Part shown: piece by piece, positions 378-8,688 of the stretch
How the letters are laid out: every line of letters begins with the position of its first letter
Numbering within the stretch: the stretch's first letter is position 1
Virus genome (UHGV): UHGV-1597668
Length of the DNA: 16,542 nt
Source: a virus
Direction: 5' to 3' (one strand)
Position numbers and translations under genes: made by a program
Notes under the pieces: model-generated
What the model was told of the DNA's origin: nothing
Databases searched by the model: none
What the model saw: the letters and a program-made list of their open reading frames with translations, nothing else

Positions 378-2737
378 ATACCCAAAACGTCATGAGCTAC
401 ACCTCGAGTGTCTCCCTTACAAGACACAGAACGTCTGGCAAAAAGAGGTTCCACTCTGAAGCCACTGTCATGATAAAGCTCTCTGATGTTTGGCGCGCCA
501 CTGTTAGTAATGAGAACCTTTGCACCTCGACGATGAGCATCCGTCAACAGAGACACCAGGCGTTTTTGCTCTTCAAACTTAAAGTCATGACCGGAATAGT
601 TCGTGAATCCCTCTGTATTTGGAAGCGGTTCATACGGCGGATCGCAAAAGATGACATCTCCTTCTCCGGCAGCTTCAATCACCGCTGCAAAATCACCGCA
701 TACAAACTCAGACCGCCCTTCCGCACCGAGGAAGGCTTCCATCTCCTGTAATGGGAAATACGGAGTTTTATACTTCCCATAACCGACATTGAACTCACCG
801 GCCTGGTTGTAGCGCGTCAATCCGTTAAAACAATGTCGGTTCAGGAACAAAAACGCCGCTGCGCGATGTAAATCATCATAGACTTGTTTGTTAAACGCAT
901 TCCGTACTGCCAGGTATCCTTCCTGTGTGTTGTAGTCCTGGAAGAAACGATGTGCCAGAGTGATAAGTGAATGCGCCTCGCGTTGCAGAGTCTTGTAAAA
1001 GTTAATCAGGTCAGCATTCACATCATTTAGCAGATTTTCCTGGTATCCGGCATTCATGAAGACAGCTCCGCCACCAACGAAAGGTTCAATCAAGCGCTTC
1101 CCTTCTGGCAAATAGCGAAAGATTTGTTCCAGAACACCAAATTTTCCACCAGCCCATTTGAATATAGACCGTTCGAATTCTGCCGCTGGTTTAACTTTTC
1201 GCTCTTTTGTTTCACTTCCTTCTTTCTGCCGACATACGGCCTTAGTAATCTGATCGCCAATCCAGCGCATTACTGGTATTGCCATACTATTGCCGATCGC
1301 TTTGTAACGCGGTCCGTCAGCTGCAAGCATCGCGGCCTCTTCTTCGCTTAAATCTGGATAGTGATTGCGAAGATATGCCAGTTCATCTGAATTAACTTTT
1401 TTACGCTTTTCCGTAGGGATCAACGTATGCCCATCAGGAAAACCTTGCAGCCTTTCACATTCGACAGGGGTAAGACGGCGGACAGCTACTTCTGCGTTTC
1501 TTACTTCATAGCAAACAGCTGTTGGATTTTTAGCCATTAGAGATGGTGAAGTATTCTTAGTTGCAGCATGTTGTGTACCGCTCATACGCTCAGGAAAAGC
1601 CAATGTAACAAGATGCTCATGGCTTTCTTGCTCACGTGCCCGCAATGTACCATGCCCTTCTGACCAAAAACCTGCTCCTGTGCTGCTAAAAACGGCAAGA
1701 TCAGTGGCATCTTTAAAATCTCTTGCCTTTACTGTCGATGCGGTTTCATCGTCAATATATTCCCCAAATGCTGCCATCCTGAAAGCGTTTACGGCTTTCG
1801 TCGATTTCATACCGGGTGGCATGTCAGCGTGTAGGCATGGATTTAGGCTTTCGCCACTGATTGCAGCGCCATTTGCAATAATGGCGGAAGCGATTTCCTT
1901 CTTTTTTCGGCTCGGCGCAATATTCCGGCGCACGCCTTCGAACTCAAAAAGTACCGTTGCGGGATCGAGGTCTGTTCGAGCACTTGCGACAACAAACACG
2001 CATCGGCGTCGTTGTGCCACTCCGAAGTATTGGGCATCAAGGATTCTCCAGGCCACTTTTCGCTGCGGTCCATAAATACAACCACACTGCGGCCACTTTG
2101 GAGCATGGCAACCGGTTTTGATATCCCACCGCCAGAACGCGTTACTTTTTCCTGATTCAGGTCGATCACCTGGTTCGAATGGCGCATCTTCTCCAGCCAA
2201 TCCGGCAAGGAAACATCCGAAGGCGTTATCTGCCGATGACAAGACTCCTGGGACATTTTCCCAGACGATAACGGCTGGTTTGAGAAATGACTCAGCCCGT
2301 TTGTCGTCAATTGCATTTGCAAGCTCCACATACTTTAAAGTTAGCGCGCCACGCTCATCATCAAGCCCACCACGTAATCCAGCGATACTGAATGCCTGAC
2401 AGTTATGGACCACCGCACCATTGAGGATATAGGAATGATCACCTTCGACTTCTATGTTGTATACAGTATCTAGGCCTACCGATTTAAACTCTTTGACTGT
2501 TCGTAAAAGCATTCCATGAGCCAATCTTGATTTACGTGACAATTTCTGCGGGCAGATTGTTACCTGATAATAATTCCGTTGATTTACCACGCGATCCTCA
2601 ATCACTTTTTTGGGCTCAACTTCAATAAAGCTGACCGAAGAAACATAACCACAAGTCTGTGACAACTCCGCAACGCCCCAAGCAATACTCGCGGCTTCAA
2701 TTCCACTGCAAACAGATCCATAGCACAGCTCTTTCAC
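368..2737 (-). CDS. dmt: Bifunctional DNA methyltransferase: N-terminal C5-cytosine MTase domain fused to C-terminal Dam-type N6-adenine MTase domain (P1 Dmt-like)
   Basis: 788-aa ORF. C5-MTase motifs: CQAFSIAG (motif IV catalytic Cys), IVWENVPGV (ENV), [10 protein letters not shown] (motif VIII), [19 protein letters not shown] (IX), [10 protein letters not shown] (X). Dam motifs in the C-terminal ~270 aa: [42 protein letters not shown]. Start ATG overlaps the hrdC stop (ATGA), suggesting translational coupling. Confidence 0.9.
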
Positions 2738-3639
2738 TGCTTAGCCTCTCCACCAAGGGCATTTACCAGAGCATCAACCAGGCACGAAATTTCACTGGTC
2801 AACAGGAAGAAATCTGCGTCCAGTCGCTGCGCAACATCTTCACTATCAATATCAGAGTTCTGCTCAAGCAATTCATCCGCAAATTTGACGCTGGTAAGGC
2901 TGAAGTTATGGTCCAGTGTAAATTTAATGCGGTTCTGCCAGTCGAGTGCCAACTTAGTGACGAGCTTGCCAGCTTCCAGGTGTGTGGAAATTTCATCGCT
3001 TCCCAAATCCTGCTTTTTCACTCGGGCAATACCGCCATCCTCAAGCACTGCCTTAAGTTCTGCCGCATCCCCCATTTGAAATCCCTGTGGAGCACTACCA
3101 TCACGTACCCAGTCGGTCAGCGTTAATTCAATGGGATTTTCAACACTCAGGGGAACAACAGGAAGAGAACCCAGAGACTTACGCATAAGCGCGAGCATAT
3201 CCTCTGCCTGCCGCGCGCTGGCATTGATATAGATACGTTTAGTTGAACCATCGTAGATCGCCTGGATAACAGAAAACTTTGAAAAAGCCCGTGGCAGAAG
3301 AGAATGCAGAACTTCGTCTTTCAGGGAATCCTTCTCTGTTTTCTTCAGTTTACGCGCTTGTTCTTGCTCAAGTTTTTCAATTTTTTCTTGAATAGCTCGC
3401 TGGATAACCGGCGGGGGAAGAATTTTTGTTTCGCGCTTTGCTTCAACAAGGATAAAACCATTTCCATGCATAGCGATAACTTCGGAATTATCACCAAATG
3501 GCGATACAAAACCGAACTTGGCCATATCCTGACTACCGCATGGCGTGAAAAGGATCATTTTCTTTTTATCTTCTAAGTCGGTCAGATCCGCCTCACGAGA
3601 AAGTTTATAAATAGTAATGTTTTTCCAGTGCTTAAACAT
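2734..3639 (-). CDS. hrdC: RdgC-family recombination-associated protein (P1 HrdC-like)
   Basis: Near full-length similarity to E. coli RdgC as I recall it ([68 protein letters not shown]-terminal LGGEA). Start placed at internal ATG 3639 ([16 protein letters not shown], matching the RdgC N-terminus MLWFKNLMVYRLSRE) rather than the longest-ORF start at 3753. Confidence 0.9.
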
Positions 3640-3916
3640 GTTGTAACCCTTGAATATCAACCACAGAAAGCTCGTCTTTGTAGAAAAAGGCCAGGTTGTG
3701 GCCCCCCCTCGTTTGAGCGTATGAGCTGGGACCAATTTCGTTCTTCCAGACAAATGGCTTTAAATCCGTACGGCGAAGCATAAAAACGCGATTTGTTCCG
3801 CTCTGATTCCCAATGAGGCAAAAGCCTTCTTTCACCTTGATAGCCTGCAAGTTGTCGAGTTCACCGCTGGTTACACGGCTATCGAACTCCTTGCGGCTTA
3901 TTAGCTCCATCTGCAT
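3632..3916 (-). CDS. Hypothetical protein upstream of hrdC, 94 aa with this start (P1 uhr position)
   Basis: ORF in the six-frame track (3632..3988). Start chosen at ATG 3916, which has a GGAG Shine-Dalgarno 7 nt upstream; the upstream TTG/ATG starts overlap the promoter/operator region. Overlaps the hrdC start by 8 nt. No recognisable domain. Confidence 0.5.
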
Positions 3917-3987
3917 CTGACGACTCCAAACAAATGCCCATTGAAGGGCGATGGCTGAATGGTACCGAAAACACGACATAAAAAACA

Positions 3988-4004
3988 ATATTTATTAGAG
4001 CAAT
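3988..4004 (-). promoter_or_regulatory. P1 C1-repressor operator-like site upstream of the uhr-hrdC-dmt operon
   Basis: Minus strand reads ATTGCTCTAATAAATAT, 16/17 identical to consensus ATTGCTCTAATAAATTT. Lies in the divergent intergenic region just upstream of the leftward operon. Shares the 14-bp core TTTATTAGAGCAAT with the site at 361-377. Confidence 0.5.
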
Positions 4005-4031
4005 TATGCAATAGTTAACGCCATGTAGACC

Positions 4032-4052
4032 ACAAGTAACCTAAGTTAAAAT
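4032..4052 (+). promoter_or_regulatory. Candidate phage late-type promoter (ACAAGTAAC-N6-TAAAAT)
   Basis: Same architecture and spacing as the element at 11057-11077 (ACAAGTGAC-N6-TAAAAT) upstream of the gp23-like gene. Sits 33 nt upstream of the 4085 ORF. Confidence 0.3.
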
Positions 4053-4084
4053 AACGAAAACCAGAGCAAATAATTGGTGATGAC

Positions 4085-4369
4085 GTGGCAAGTATTGCAA
4101 CAAAAGACAGCATTTGTTCGGGGCACGGAGGATTCCCATCCAGGCCTCCTGTAGAGAGTGAACCACTACTTAAAGTCAACGGAGTCGAAGTGTTAGTTGA
4201 TGGTAAGCAATATGCACAGCATACCGATGGAAACAGTACGCACGGTGGGCAAGCTATATCAACCAGGGCATGGTTTACCGTCAATGGTAAAGGGGTCGTA
4301 TGCGTTGGTGACCCTGTTTCATGCGGCTCTACCGTAGCGTCAGGAGACGGCCTGGTTCAGGTAAGTTAG
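4085..4369 (+). CDS. PAAR-like small protein (94 aa, GTG start)
   Basis: Repeated Gly-rich beta-strand pattern typical of PAAR cone proteins: SGHGG..., KVNGVEVLVDG, STHGGQAIS, FTVNGKGVVCVGDPVSCGSTVASG. First gene of the rightward operon. Confidence 0.5.
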   Translation: MASIATKDSICSGHGGFPSRPPVESEPLLKVNGVEVLVDGKQYAQHTDGNSTHGGQAISTRAWFTVNGKGVVCVGDPVSCGSTVASGDGLVQVS

Positions 4370-6240: not shown

Positions 6241-6347
6241 CTTATCCACAGCATAGATCCAATAAACAGATCCTAAAGAGAACCTAGGAAGATCCAAAGA
6301 AGATCCCGGATCGCTGTAAGCCGCGTCATTACTGGCCTGAAATGGGA
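6241..6347. other. oriR-like plasmid replication origin: DnaA box plus clustered GATC (Dam) sites
   Basis: Perfect DnaA box TTATCCACA (6241-6249). Six GATC sites within ~95 bp (6255, 6268, 6290, 6301, 6308, 6344), four of them in the heptamer context AGATCC. Immediately upstream of the iteron array. Confidence 0.6.
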
Positions 6348-6354
6348 TCAACAT

Positions 6355-6460
6355 TGACTATACGCGATTTTATGTTGACTGTGCACGATTTATTGTTGAC
6401 TGCACGCGATTTATTGTTGACTATACGCGACAGAAACATTGACTGTAAGCGATTTTAGAG
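6355..6460 (+). repeat. incC-like iteron array: five direct ~21-bp repeats, core TTGACTnnnnGCGATTT
   Basis: TTGACTATACGCGATTTTATG (6355), TTGACTGTGCACGATTTATTG (6376), TTGACTGCACGCGATTTATTG (6397), TTGACTATACGCGACAGAAAC (6418), TTGACTGTAAGCGATTTTAGA (6440), at regular 21-22 bp spacing. Confidence 0.8.
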
Positions 6461-6533
6461 TCTGAATATTCACAGCTGTTGATAACAGCCATCCAAATTG
6501 ACGTCAGGCCGCGCCACACATGGAGAAACTGCG

Positions 6534-7418
6534 ATGCCGGAAGAAAGTAAAGGCTTCCTTAGCGTTGAAGAAGTTGCAGGAAATACAGGAGAAATCCACA
6601 GCCTGAAGCCCAATAACAACAGCACTATACAACCCATCGCTTTGTTGCGCTTAGGTGTGTTTGTGCCAACCTTAAAATCTACCAATGTGGCGCTACGTCG
6701 CGGATCGTCAGTTACTACAAACACAACGAACGCAACCGAAGAACTATCAAGCCTCAAAATTGTTGAGCAGGAAGGCTATGAGGGAATTGAAATTCATGGT
6801 CCACGCCTGGATATGGATACTGATTTTAAGGTGTGGGTGGGCATAACCTCCGCGTTGTTTGACTACGCACCTGATGATGACGGCATAATCACCCTGCCAT
6901 TCTCCGAGTTTGCCGATCGATGCGGCTATCCACGTAAGCGCCTTTCAAAGGCGTTCCGTAAAAGTATTGATGACTCTCTGACACGCATTCAGCAGACAGT
7001 TGTCAAATTCCGCTTCCCGGCGGCAAAAGGTCATCTCAATAACATTAACGTCAACTTGTTGGCATATAGCAGCCTGAATACCGAGCTTGATGTTATCGAG
7101 ATCCAGCCGCAGAAACAGCTATCTGAACTTTACTATGTTGACTATAAGCGAATCCTGAAGCTGAAGATGCTGGATAAACTAGGGCGCAAAGAGACGGCCA
7201 AGGTACTGTATACATTCTTTGAGGCTCTACCCGCCAACCCGGCACCTGTCAGCATTGAGCGCCTTAGAGCGAGGCTTAATCTCAAATCATCCGTTAGCGT
7301 GCAAAATAGCGTTATCAGAAAAGCCATGAAAGATTTGGAAGCTATTGAATATCTTAAATTTTCAGAGATAAAAAACGGCAGGAAAATCGGCTTCCAGATC
7401 CATAAGCGCAATCCATAA
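6534..7418 (+). CDS. repA: Iteron-binding replication initiator RepA (P1 RepA family)
   Basis: Flanked by iteron arrays on both sides. Similarity to P1 RepA as recalled (QPIALLRLGVFVP, HGPRLDMDTDFKVWVG, YTFFEALPANPAPVSIERLRARL). Start set at ATG 6534 (GGAG Shine-Dalgarno) rather than TTG 6498. Confidence 0.85.
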   Translation: MPEESKGFLSVEEVAGNTGEIHSLKPNNNSTIQPIALLRLGVFVPTLKSTNVALRRGSSVTTNTTNATEELSSLKIVEQEGYEGIEIHGPRLDMDTDFKVWVGITSALFDYAPDDDGIITLPFSEFADRCGYPRKRLSKAFRKSIDDSLTRIQQTVVKFRFPAAKGHLNNINVNLLAYSSLNTELDVIEIQPQKQLSELYYVDYKRILKLKMLDKLGRKETAKVLYTFFEALPANPAPVSIERLRARLNLKSSVSVQNSVIRKAMKDLEAIEYLKFSEIKNGRKIGFQIHKRNP

Positions 7419-7420
7419 TA

Positions 7421-7675
7421 TTGACTATATGCGATAGCGAGAAGTTGACTATAGGCGACATTCGTTGACGCTGGTGGATTTTTGCTGGCGTCAATATTCT
7501 GCAAGTCGCTATTGAGATGGCTTTTAGGGGCATTTCATCGCGTATAGTCAACGTTTCTCCCGACAATATCTTACATAGTCGATCTTTGGTGGAGTTAAAT
7601 CGACTACAGTCAACTTTTGACTGTAGTCACATCGCGCATAGTCAACTATTCACATTAACCTTCGCGCATAGTCAA
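7421..7675. repeat. incA-like iteron array downstream of repA, iterons in both orientations
   Basis: Forward copies TTGACTATATGCGA (7421), TTGACTATAGGCGA (7445), TTGACTGTAGTCAC (7616). Reverse copies TCGCGTATAGTCAA (7538), CGACTACAGTCAA (7602), TCGCGCATAGTCAA (7632 and 7662). Same core as the incC iterons. Confidence 0.75.
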
Positions 7676-7710
7676 CATTTGCGCGGTTCTCATCAAGCAG
7701 TGGTATTGAT

Positions 7711-8520
7711 ATGCAAGAAGAGAAACAACACTACCTCTACGTTCTGGTGCCAGAGAACGGAGATACTTTTAAAATCGGCATTTCATGTGGTCCATTGGCA
7801 CGGTTTAAAGGGCTACAAGTGAGTCCCGATTTTGCGCTTTCACGGGTCTATCGTGGTACGCGTTTGGCAATGGTTAATCTTGAGCGGGCTTTACACGCAA
7901 CCTTTTTCCCCTGGAATGCGCCGTGGGAGAAAAGCGCCGGTGGCGGGCATACTGAATGGTTTACACGAGAGTGTCTTGATAAGGTTTTGGCTTATATCGA
8001 ATATCTAAATGATATGTGGGGAGGGATTCTCGAGCGCATTAAGTCGAATGATTTACTTCAGCGTCCAGTAGATGCTGCTTGCTCTTTCGAAAAAGAGCTG
8101 GATGTTACTTCTATCGTGACTTTCAAAGATGACGCAGGAATGAGGGACGTGGCTTATGTCTCCATATCTGGCTATGAACCGGACGCGATCCGCGCTCAAT
8201 GTGAATTGCTGAAAGCAATGTTTATGCTTCGGACTAAATATCCCTGGGATACAGGGCGGGTGTGCTTCCCTATGGAAGAGTTAACCGCCACCATTGATTC
8301 CCAGCTTTACCACGATAATCCAGAGAAGTTTTTTAGCCTTTTAGCCGATAATGGGCTTAACTGTGTGTCCGGGCTGGGGCGAAGTAGAATCCAACATGCC
8401 TCGCTCTTCGGTCCCTTCTTTTACGATCGACACGGGTACTTTGAGGCTGAACTTCCGGCGCTTACGCGTGCTATAGATACTATCGATTTCGAACGATTAT
8501 TCGCTGCTCTTAGCAAATAA
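7711..8520 (+). CDS. T5orf172 / GIY-YIG-superfamily-like domain protein with unknown C-terminal domain, 269 aa
   Basis: N-terminal ~95 aa match the T5orf172-type pattern: YLYVL....G..FKIGIS, conserved Arg (ARFKGLQ), LERALHATF, GHTEWF. C-terminal ~170 aa has no recognisable motif. Own Rho-independent terminator downstream. Confidence 0.65.
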   Translation: MQEEKQHYLYVLVPENGDTFKIGISCGPLARFKGLQVSPDFALSRVYRGTRLAMVNLERALHATFFPWNAPWEKSAGGGHTEWFTRECLDKVLAYIEYLNDMWGGILERIKSNDLLQRPVDAACSFEKELDVTSIVTFKDDAGMRDVAYVSISGYEPDAIRAQCELLKAMFMLRTKYPWDTGRVCFPMEELTATIDSQLYHDNPEKFFSLLADNGLNCVSGLGRSRIQHASLFGPFFYDRHGYFEAELPALTRAIDTIDFERLFAALSK

Positions 8521-8527
8521 CACTGAT

Positions 8528-8548
8528 GCCCCTGAACGGGGCTTTTTT
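8528..8548 (+). terminator. Rho-independent terminator
   Basis: GCCCC-TGAAC-GGGGC stem-loop followed by TTTTTT, directly after the 7711-8520 stop. Confidence 0.75.
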
Positions 8549-8688
8549 GTGCCCTCCTTGTAACTCTCAATCGTGCAAAATGAACCAAACATGCAGAGAA
8601 TGCTATGTACAAGCATCTACGCATACATTATTATTTTATGCAGCATTTTTAATTAAATTCAAAAATACAGCATAAAGGATGACTTTCG

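Follow-up and report, generated by a model that had tools for sequence, protein, structure and literature searches.

An intein relic at the catalytic cysteine of the Dmt methyltransferase in a P1-like phage-plasmid

An intein can splice only with a nucleophile in block A, Thr and His in block B and a Hint fold that is complete, and the cyclisation of the C-terminal Asn also depends on a folded Hint domain. In the usual mini-inteins, the endonuclease alone is deleted, both splicing halves are kept and the host protein survives. Here we describe a different outcome in Dmt, a protein in which a C5-cytosine methyltransferase (C5-MTase) domain is fused to a Dam-family N6-adenine methyltransferase domain, encoded on UHGV virus genome UHGV-1597668 (16,542 nucleotides, analysed whole and hereafter called the window). 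We put the probability at roughly 90% that the segment preceding the catalytic Cys of the C5-MTase domain is the non-functional fossil of a homing intein, made by a 918-bp in-frame deletion that left the C5-MTase domain dead and the Dam domain intact. As in the decay stage of the homing cycle, the endonuclease was lost by internal deletion where intein-plus and intein-minus alleles coexist. Unlike in the usual mini-inteins, the deletion in the window crosses the boundary between N-extein and intein, sacrificing both splicing and the host C5-MTase domain, a loss that was presumably tolerated since that domain is dispensable.

The parent element, which survives complete in relatives of the window, resembles full-length inteins that combine a Hint domain with a LAGLIDADG endonuclease (PI-SceI of the VMA1 type, PI-PfuI and TliVMA): it has Cys1, a TNDH block B, two LAGLIDADG motifs, blocks F and G ending in His-Asn, a Cys at the +1 position and the same predicted fold. 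The window copy differs from these inteins in being without residues 1-249, blocks A and B, the endonuclease active site and a complete Hint fold. Inteins within phage DNA methyltransferases have been described before, namely mycobacteriophage DNMT-1 and DNMT-2, but their hosts are N6/N4 methyltransferases (N6_N4_Mtase) of actinophages (Kelley et al. 2016, PMC5050341), whereas the host here is the C5-MTase domain of an enterobacterial phage-plasmid and the insertion lies at the catalytic Cys. The full-text literature that we searched, with subscription journals and InBase outside its scope, held no description of an intein in P1 Dmt or in C5-MTase motif IV; as this coverage is incomplete, we call the element undescribed only provisionally.

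The remnant and its parent intein

The window is a segment of a P1-like phage-plasmid. Over its full length (16.5 kb) it is 98.3-98.7% identical to many Escherichia coli P1-type plasmids, and its gene order is colinear with that of P1 (bplB, gp21-23, parBA, upfA-C, uhr-hrdC, dmt), with a replicon module that looks swapped. The dmt open reading frame (ORF) runs from 368 to 2737 on the minus strand, as do all features of the gene given below in plus-strand coordinates. It encodes a degraded C5-MTase domain and an intact Dam domain, matched by Pfam PF00145 and PF02086, and its product is 93% identical to P1 Dmt across aligned columns. The protein is 789 amino acids long, compared with 754 in P1, 1013 in phage record OP279344 and 1095 in an intact intein-bearing allele of the P0002 type.

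The first 20 codons (2678-2737) are the only N-extein to survive and come from the region of methyltransferase motif I, and their product is identical to residues 1-20 of both P1 Dmt and intein-bearing Dmt. Further downstream, residues 76-112 (2402-2512) comprise C-terminal Hint strands with intein blocks F and G (NGAVVHN). Taken together with the next residue (76-113; 2399-2512), they end in His-Asn followed by the catalytic Cys of CQAFSIAG, the arrangement on which the original prediction of an intein-like segment was built. His111 is encoded at 2405-2407, Asn112 at 2402-2404 and Cys113 at 2399-2401. Cys113 is at once the intein +1 residue and the catalytic Cys of methyltransferase motif IV; it aligns with M.HhaI Cys81 and is preceded by Asn, not Pro. 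In P1 the same context reads GTP/CQAFS (a slash marks the insertion site here and below), bearing out the earlier view that the Pro of motif IV has been replaced and that the catalytic Cys sits at the +1 position.

Several comparisons identify the segment. The NCBIfam model for the intein C-terminal splicing region, TIGR01443, matches residues 92-113 with 29.3 bits (E 6.8e-07), against a curated cut-off of 15.6 bits; Pfam Intein_splicing gives a sub-threshold match to residues 77-112 (E 0.003), and the equivalent segment of the intact allele aligns with the C-terminus of the Spl DnaX mini-intein (PDB 7cfv). At the DNA level, 274 of 276 nucleotides of the relic are identical to the 3' end of the complete intein in related dmt genes. 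The columns that are invariant across 12 allelic inteins (V, N, V, D, V, N and C) are all kept in its block F/G, as are the penultimate His, the terminal Asn and, in Cys113, the +1 residue. The resemblance of residues 76-113 to an intein is beyond chance.

What precedes this segment in an intein has been lost. The N-terminal nucleophile of block A is gone from the window's Dmt, whereas intact alleles have CFTAGHMV; the TxxH of block B is gone too, since the TNDH of the intact alleles falls inside the deletion. Both LAGLIDADG motifs, present in intact alleles, are deleted. On the numbering of P0016, a database protein identical to the intact allele, the Hint strands equivalent to residues 376-417 remain and the N-terminal strands 84-184 are missing, leaving the fold incomplete; Pfam Hint_2 matches the intact allele but not the window protein. 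Judged by its sequence, the window copy is a relic and not a splicing-capable member of the intein class, and in its history it is a degenerate derivative of a standard intein.

When phage genomes were searched by megablast with the 5' part of dmt, the relatives fell into two classes. Classical P1, P7, SJ46 and others give a match broken in two and have ~105 bp less there, whereas OP279344, RCS47 and vB_EcoM-Ro157c2YLVW match without a break from query base 53 at 98-99% identity. P1 Dmt is intein-free at the site, reading ...VLAGEIESPDVLVWGTP/CQAFSIAG (context VLVWGTP/CQAFSIAG). An alignment with P1 Dmt had been proposed along with the original prediction, and it bears the prediction out: the homologous intein-free residues before the catalytic Cys, ...KVLAGEIESPDVLVWGTP/C, are wholly unlike the relic segment. 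Between that Pro and Cys, OP279344 Dmt carries 341 additional residues that begin with CFTAGHMVLCKNGY and contain TNDH as well as LAGAYVGDGY and LQGYLDTDGT, two LAGLIDADG motifs with their Asp residues.

This insert is an intein. It scores 28.5 bits with Pfam Hint_2 (cut-off 28.4) and 35.1 bits with LAGLIDADG_3 (PF14528; cut-off 22.5), and its sequence matches the C-terminus of the Spl DnaX mini-intein and PI-PkoII. An AlphaFold model of P0016, with a predicted local distance difference test score (pLDDT) of 81.6, is matched best in the PDB by PI-SceI, the TliVMA and PhoVMA inteins and PI-PfuI (E 4e-18 to 2e-11), and the endonuclease fold of the intact element also matches I-SceI. Its guanine-plus-cytosine content is 43%, compared with 49-55% in the flanking extein DNA. 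Sequence and predicted fold alike point to a genuine Hint plus LAGLIDADG homing-endonuclease intein, in which the catalytic Cys of the methyltransferase would double as the +1 splice nucleophile. Of the three origins that had been offered for the segment, the full-length intein alleles in relatives, 98-99% identical, single out an intein relic fixed in the protein; they exclude both an unconventional or very reduced Hint-like element and coincidence.

Inteins homologous to this one, at 29-52% identity, occupy the same Pro-Cys site in other C5-MTases, from Mannheimia (M. haemolytica), a Rodentibacter prophage, Pseudonocardia, Parvibaculum and metagenomes. The site reads ..GGTP/C…HN/CQ.. or ..SPE/C…N/CT.., the block F/G invariants are the same and the database names of these proteins include 'Hint domain-containing protein' and 'DOD-type homing endonuclease'. 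They therefore constitute an allelic intein family specific to C5-MTase motif IV. Its members are complete or, in the case of P0038, a clean mini-intein that has no endonuclease at the same Pro-Cys site, whereas the window has an imprecise deletion in which extein was lost as well. We considered P0039, a Rodentibacter C5-MTase of 401 amino acids, as a second independent relic and rejected it. The locus, in a Rodentibacter pneumotropicus prophage (QXNH01000011.1; stretch L007, ~1920-4206), is one continuous ORF with a complete homologous intein at the same Pro-Cys site, and its annotated start was mis-called inside the C-terminus of that intein.

The 918-bp deletion and its consequences

The event that produced the relic can be read from the DNA. 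Compared with the dmt gene of OP279344, the window gene is identical through gene nucleotide 56, and from nucleotide 53 it matches at an offset of +918. The two parental sequences at the junction are TTGCCTGGG (extein codons 18-21, I-A-W-E) and TTGCTTGGG (intein codons ~247-250, L-A-W-G), which share an imperfect 9-bp direct repeat, TTGCYTGGG, that is, TTGC(C/T)TGGG. The intein version was kept, and the junction (2677-2685) reads TTGCTTGGG. The missing 918 bp amount to 306 codons and are in frame, and the closest plasmids (those 98.3-98.7% identical over 16.5 kb) carry ~917 additional bp at dmt. On the extein side, the loss covers residues 21-77, which lie between motif I and the catalytic Cys of motif IV; among them are the genuine FAEIEPFP and the Pro half of the Pro-Cys dipeptide. 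On the intein side, residues 1-249 are gone. They held block A with its Cys1, block B, some ten Hint strands of the N-terminal half and the pair of LAGLIDADG motifs. It was correctly seen earlier that too little sequence is left for an N-terminal splicing domain.

What remains between motif I and Cys113, residues 21-112, is the last 92 residues of the intein, standing in place of 57 extein residues (21-77 of intact Dmt). The net gain of 35 amino acids over P1 Dmt (789 versus 754) thus arises because the deletion spans the boundary between N-extein and intein, not from a small insertion, and the idea that ~37 residues are simply extra has to be given up. Alignments and the intact-allele model place residues 21-75 (2513-2677) at the end of the second LAGLIDADG half-domain, where they correspond to model residues 327-381, part of a helix and four beta-strands, and include neither LAGLIDADG motif; residues 76-112 correspond to the last ~four Hint strands with blocks F and G. 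Residues 5-42 had been assigned to methyltransferase motifs I and II. Motif I does lie within residues 1-20, but residues 21-75 derive from the intein endonuclease, and the supposed motif II at residues 37-42 (FIEVEP) is a chance look-alike in endonuclease sequence, the true FAEIEPFP having been deleted. A reduced but complete mini-intein starting at Cys29 (CGYVSS...) was also considered, and was rejected on finding that residues 21-75 follow the endonuclease domain of the complete intein colinearly and with near identity.

These observations suggest a history. The P1 family has two main allelic forms of dmt, one intein-free and one with a 341-residue intein before the motif IV Cys. In the lineage of the window, illegitimate recombination or replication slippage between the 9-bp repeats would have removed 918 bp in frame from the latter, leaving 92 intein residues between motif I and the catalytic Cys. 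The deletion is recent, to judge from the identity of the relic DNA to intact alleles at 274 of 276 positions. The reading frame would have been maintained since the downstream Dam domain is still in use.

Since it lacks the N-terminal nucleophile and block B and retains only a minor part of the Hint fold, the relic should be inert, capable of neither splicing nor cleavage. The C5-MTase domain is very probably dead. Its remnant includes motif I, the catalytic Cys and the ENV of motif VI, and PF00145 still scores 73.6 bits. The damage consists of 57 residues gone, which by their position should include motifs II-III that bind S-adenosylmethionine, 92 foreign residues inserted and Asn in place of the conserved Pro before the Cys. 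Motif VIII has changed from QRRRR to QRRRC: codon 246 (2000-2002) is TGC (Cys), whereas the relatives all have CGC (Arg). The affected residue is the second Arg of the QxRxR motif and aligns with M.HhaI Arg165, for which the variant chain 2z6q has Ala in the printed PDB alignment of HhaI chains. An AlphaFold model of the N-terminal 520 residues of the window protein has a mean pLDDT of 47.5 from a shallow alignment and is uninformative about the methyltransferase fold.

Scored against 10 cluster members and 3 reference genes, the window's gene has four private amino-acid changes upstream of the Dam domain: G24E (in the relic), G206I, R246C and R496Q. G206I and R246C lie in the C5-MTase core, and the former (codon 206, 2120-2122) requires two adjacent nucleotide changes (GGC to ATC). 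The Dam half also has four private changes, all of them synonymous. The pattern fits decay of the C5-MTase half under continued constraint on Dam, although we regard it as suggestive only.

The Dam-family domain itself (residues 524-783; 389-1168) is intact. It scores 192.8 bits with PF02086 and 249.7 bits with TIGR00571 (cut-off 114.85), and its DPPY motif is present. With the C5-MTase half very probably dead, Dam activity alone should be expected from the window's Dmt. In P1, Dam function matters for packaging at the pac site (review PMC12707154), a reason for the reading frame to have been preserved. The deletion should have one further consequence: the intein-free homing site is gone from the window allele, which should therefore resist the endonuclease of intact alleles and not be its target.

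Distribution and alternative explanations

The parent intein is common. Among 497 PLSDB plasmids that match the region, 126 have the complete intein; in a 60-row sample drawn across the ranking, almost all of the other records were precisely intein-free (a 547-bp match instead of 1570 bp) and two were otherwise disrupted. The gene is present in 489 of 5,426 complete E. coli genomes, 151 of which have intein-type sequence, and the intein is found in 5 of 18 phage records. At 98-100% identity, it is spread over roughly a quarter to a third of P1-like elements, in E. coli, E. albertii, E. fergusonii and Salmonella, and both of its LAGLIDADG catalytic motifs are intact. A tentative reading of these data, to which we give slightly less than even odds, is that the parent is an undescribed and currently mobile homing intein of the P1 family, and that the window is a rare natural escape allele that in one event lost its endonuclease and splice junction together with the homing site.

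The deletion allele, by comparison, is rare. It was absent from the PLSDB records examined (the 497 matches, through the 60-row sample of their ranking); none of the 489 gene-bearing complete E. coli genomes spans the junction, and no sequenced phage record searched has the deletion. In a collection of 15 billion proteins, the exact 789-residue product comes solely from ENA metagenome assemblies, where it is encoded on three contigs produced by two or more analyses. One is k119_77818, evidently the window itself, and another scaffold_537 of RAMP15-1_SAMN03418259; the contigs compared are 100% identical in DNA over 5.7 kb. The source samples belong to ENA analyses ERZ27296277 and ERZ28621273. 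Contig-name styles indicate that the allele was probably recovered by more than one assembly method; the identity of the compared contigs means that a single strain, or even one read set, could underlie them.

This distribution bears on whether the deletion exists at all. An assembly artefact that conceals an intact intein allele in the true genome would account for a junction found in no isolate genome, plasmid or phage record searched and seen each time on a metagenome contig with identical sequence. However, the same junction appears on a total of three contigs and in two ENA analyses that name their contigs in differing styles (k119_77818, scaffold_537); an imperfect repeat of 9 bp is far below the k-mer length at which the name k119_77818 hints; the deletion keeps the reading frame exactly; and the further private substitutions are consistent with an independently evolving lineage. 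We consider an artefact very unlikely. That the segment is ordinary methyltransferase motif III/IV sequence, or resembles an intein by coincidence, is refuted by the alignment with intein-free P1 Dmt, by the TIGR01443 score above cut-off and by the identity of the segment to the 3' end of a verified intein.

Two further explanations would grant the relic some residual function. In one, cyclisation of Asn112 would cut the chain before Cys113, releasing a 677-residue product (the rest of the C5-MTase domain plus Dam) and a 112-residue N-terminal peptide. The terminal Asn, the penultimate His and the Asp and His of block F are all in place for such chemistry, but only the last ~four Hint strands remain, and residues 78-126 fall below a pLDDT of 50 in the window model, itself of low confidence given its shallow alignment. 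Isolated C-terminal intein fragments (IntC) are, moreover, inactive without their N-terminal partners (IntN). Such cleavage seems to us more improbable again than an artefact. The other makes the relic the IntC of a functional split intein, which would splice in trans with an N-extein-IntN protein encoded elsewhere and restore an active C5-MTase-Dam protein. Its block F/G portion (~36 amino acids) does have the size and sequence pattern of a natural IntC such as those of DnaE and gp41-1, and His-Asn-Cys and all family-invariant block F/G residues are intact. Yet the retained piece is 92 residues long, some of them endonuclease debris, and it continues straight on from extein residues 1-20 instead of forming a separate polypeptide. 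The nearest relatives all have a contiguous intein, and the junction, which was born by deletion, lies at microhomology typical of random deletion. No IntN was found: when the missing 918 bp and 306 residues were compared by blastn and tblastn with the 16.5-kb window and an 8.4-kb stretch of the second contig (L004), only chance matches were returned (E at least 3.5). Of all the explanations with any residual standing, a split intein is the one in which we place least belief.

Four points weigh against our preferred explanation, that of a dead intein fossil. Splicing by the intact intein and the inertness of the relic are both predictions. The deletion allele is known from metagenome assemblies only and may represent one strain or one read set. 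The C5-MTase activity of P1 Dmt is itself qualified by 'perhaps' in the P1 annotation, and with that function so poorly documented, to speak of its loss presumes that it existed. Finally, non-synonymous changes are in excess in the C5 half, but the counts do not reach significance (Fisher p = 0.11).

Variation around dmt and implications

Several other features of the window and its relatives were apparent. In NZ_CP027443 (NZ_CP027443.1; stretch L003, ~3900-4160), the closest full-length relative, the N-extein of dmt is interrupted by a frameshift (LGDM/KKLAKK, the slash here marking the shift), which reflects either an error of sequencing or a separate decay of the C5-MTase domain; the annotated coding sequence begins at Met7 of the intein, leaving the first 83 codons unannotated. 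Between the C5-MTase blocks, OP279344 dmt (stretch L002) has at codons ~580-720 a sequence that is unlike that of P1 and the window (codons ~277-420 in the latter) and much shorter. This variable region is presumed to be the target-recognition domain; it makes Dmt alleles mosaic in two respects, the other being the intein.

Away from dmt, positions 6329-8589 of the window have no megablast match to P1 repA/incA/oriR, while the flanks are 95-99% identical to P1. The interval, with an initiator gene at 6498-7418 (RepB-family according to the Prokaryotic Genome Annotation Pipeline (PGAP) in NZ_CP027443) and downstream DNA, looks like a replicon swap. Between the initiator gene and parA, where P1 has incA iterons only, lies an ORF of 269 amino acids (7711-8520, plus strand) with a T5orf172 (GIY-YIG-like) domain (Pfam 27.6 bits, cut-off 20). 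Its counterpart in NZ_CP027443 is split into two ORFs, annotated as a 'GIY-YIG nuclease family protein' and a hypothetical protein. The 269-residue ORF may be a free-standing homing-endonuclease-like gene of the replicon module.

For the window itself, the analysis settles the annotation: residues 21-112 of its Dmt are intein debris. A more interesting by-product than the relic is the intein polymorphism that it exposes in the family of P1, a textbook phage. Annotation pipelines mishandle the element; PGAP calls the precursor only a 'Dam family methyltransferase', and coding-sequence starts were placed inside the intein in two cases, one on a plasmid and one in Rodentibacter. Its position, exactly at the catalytic Cys of motif IV, makes it a clear example of how inteins target active-site motifs.

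The imprecise deletion is evidence from nature that Dmt can lose its cytosine-methylase domain and still keep Dam. If the parent is indeed a mobile intein and the window an escape allele, Dmt could do without its C5-MTase half in nature, and P1 would make a tractable model of intein homing and decay between co-resident phage-plasmids.

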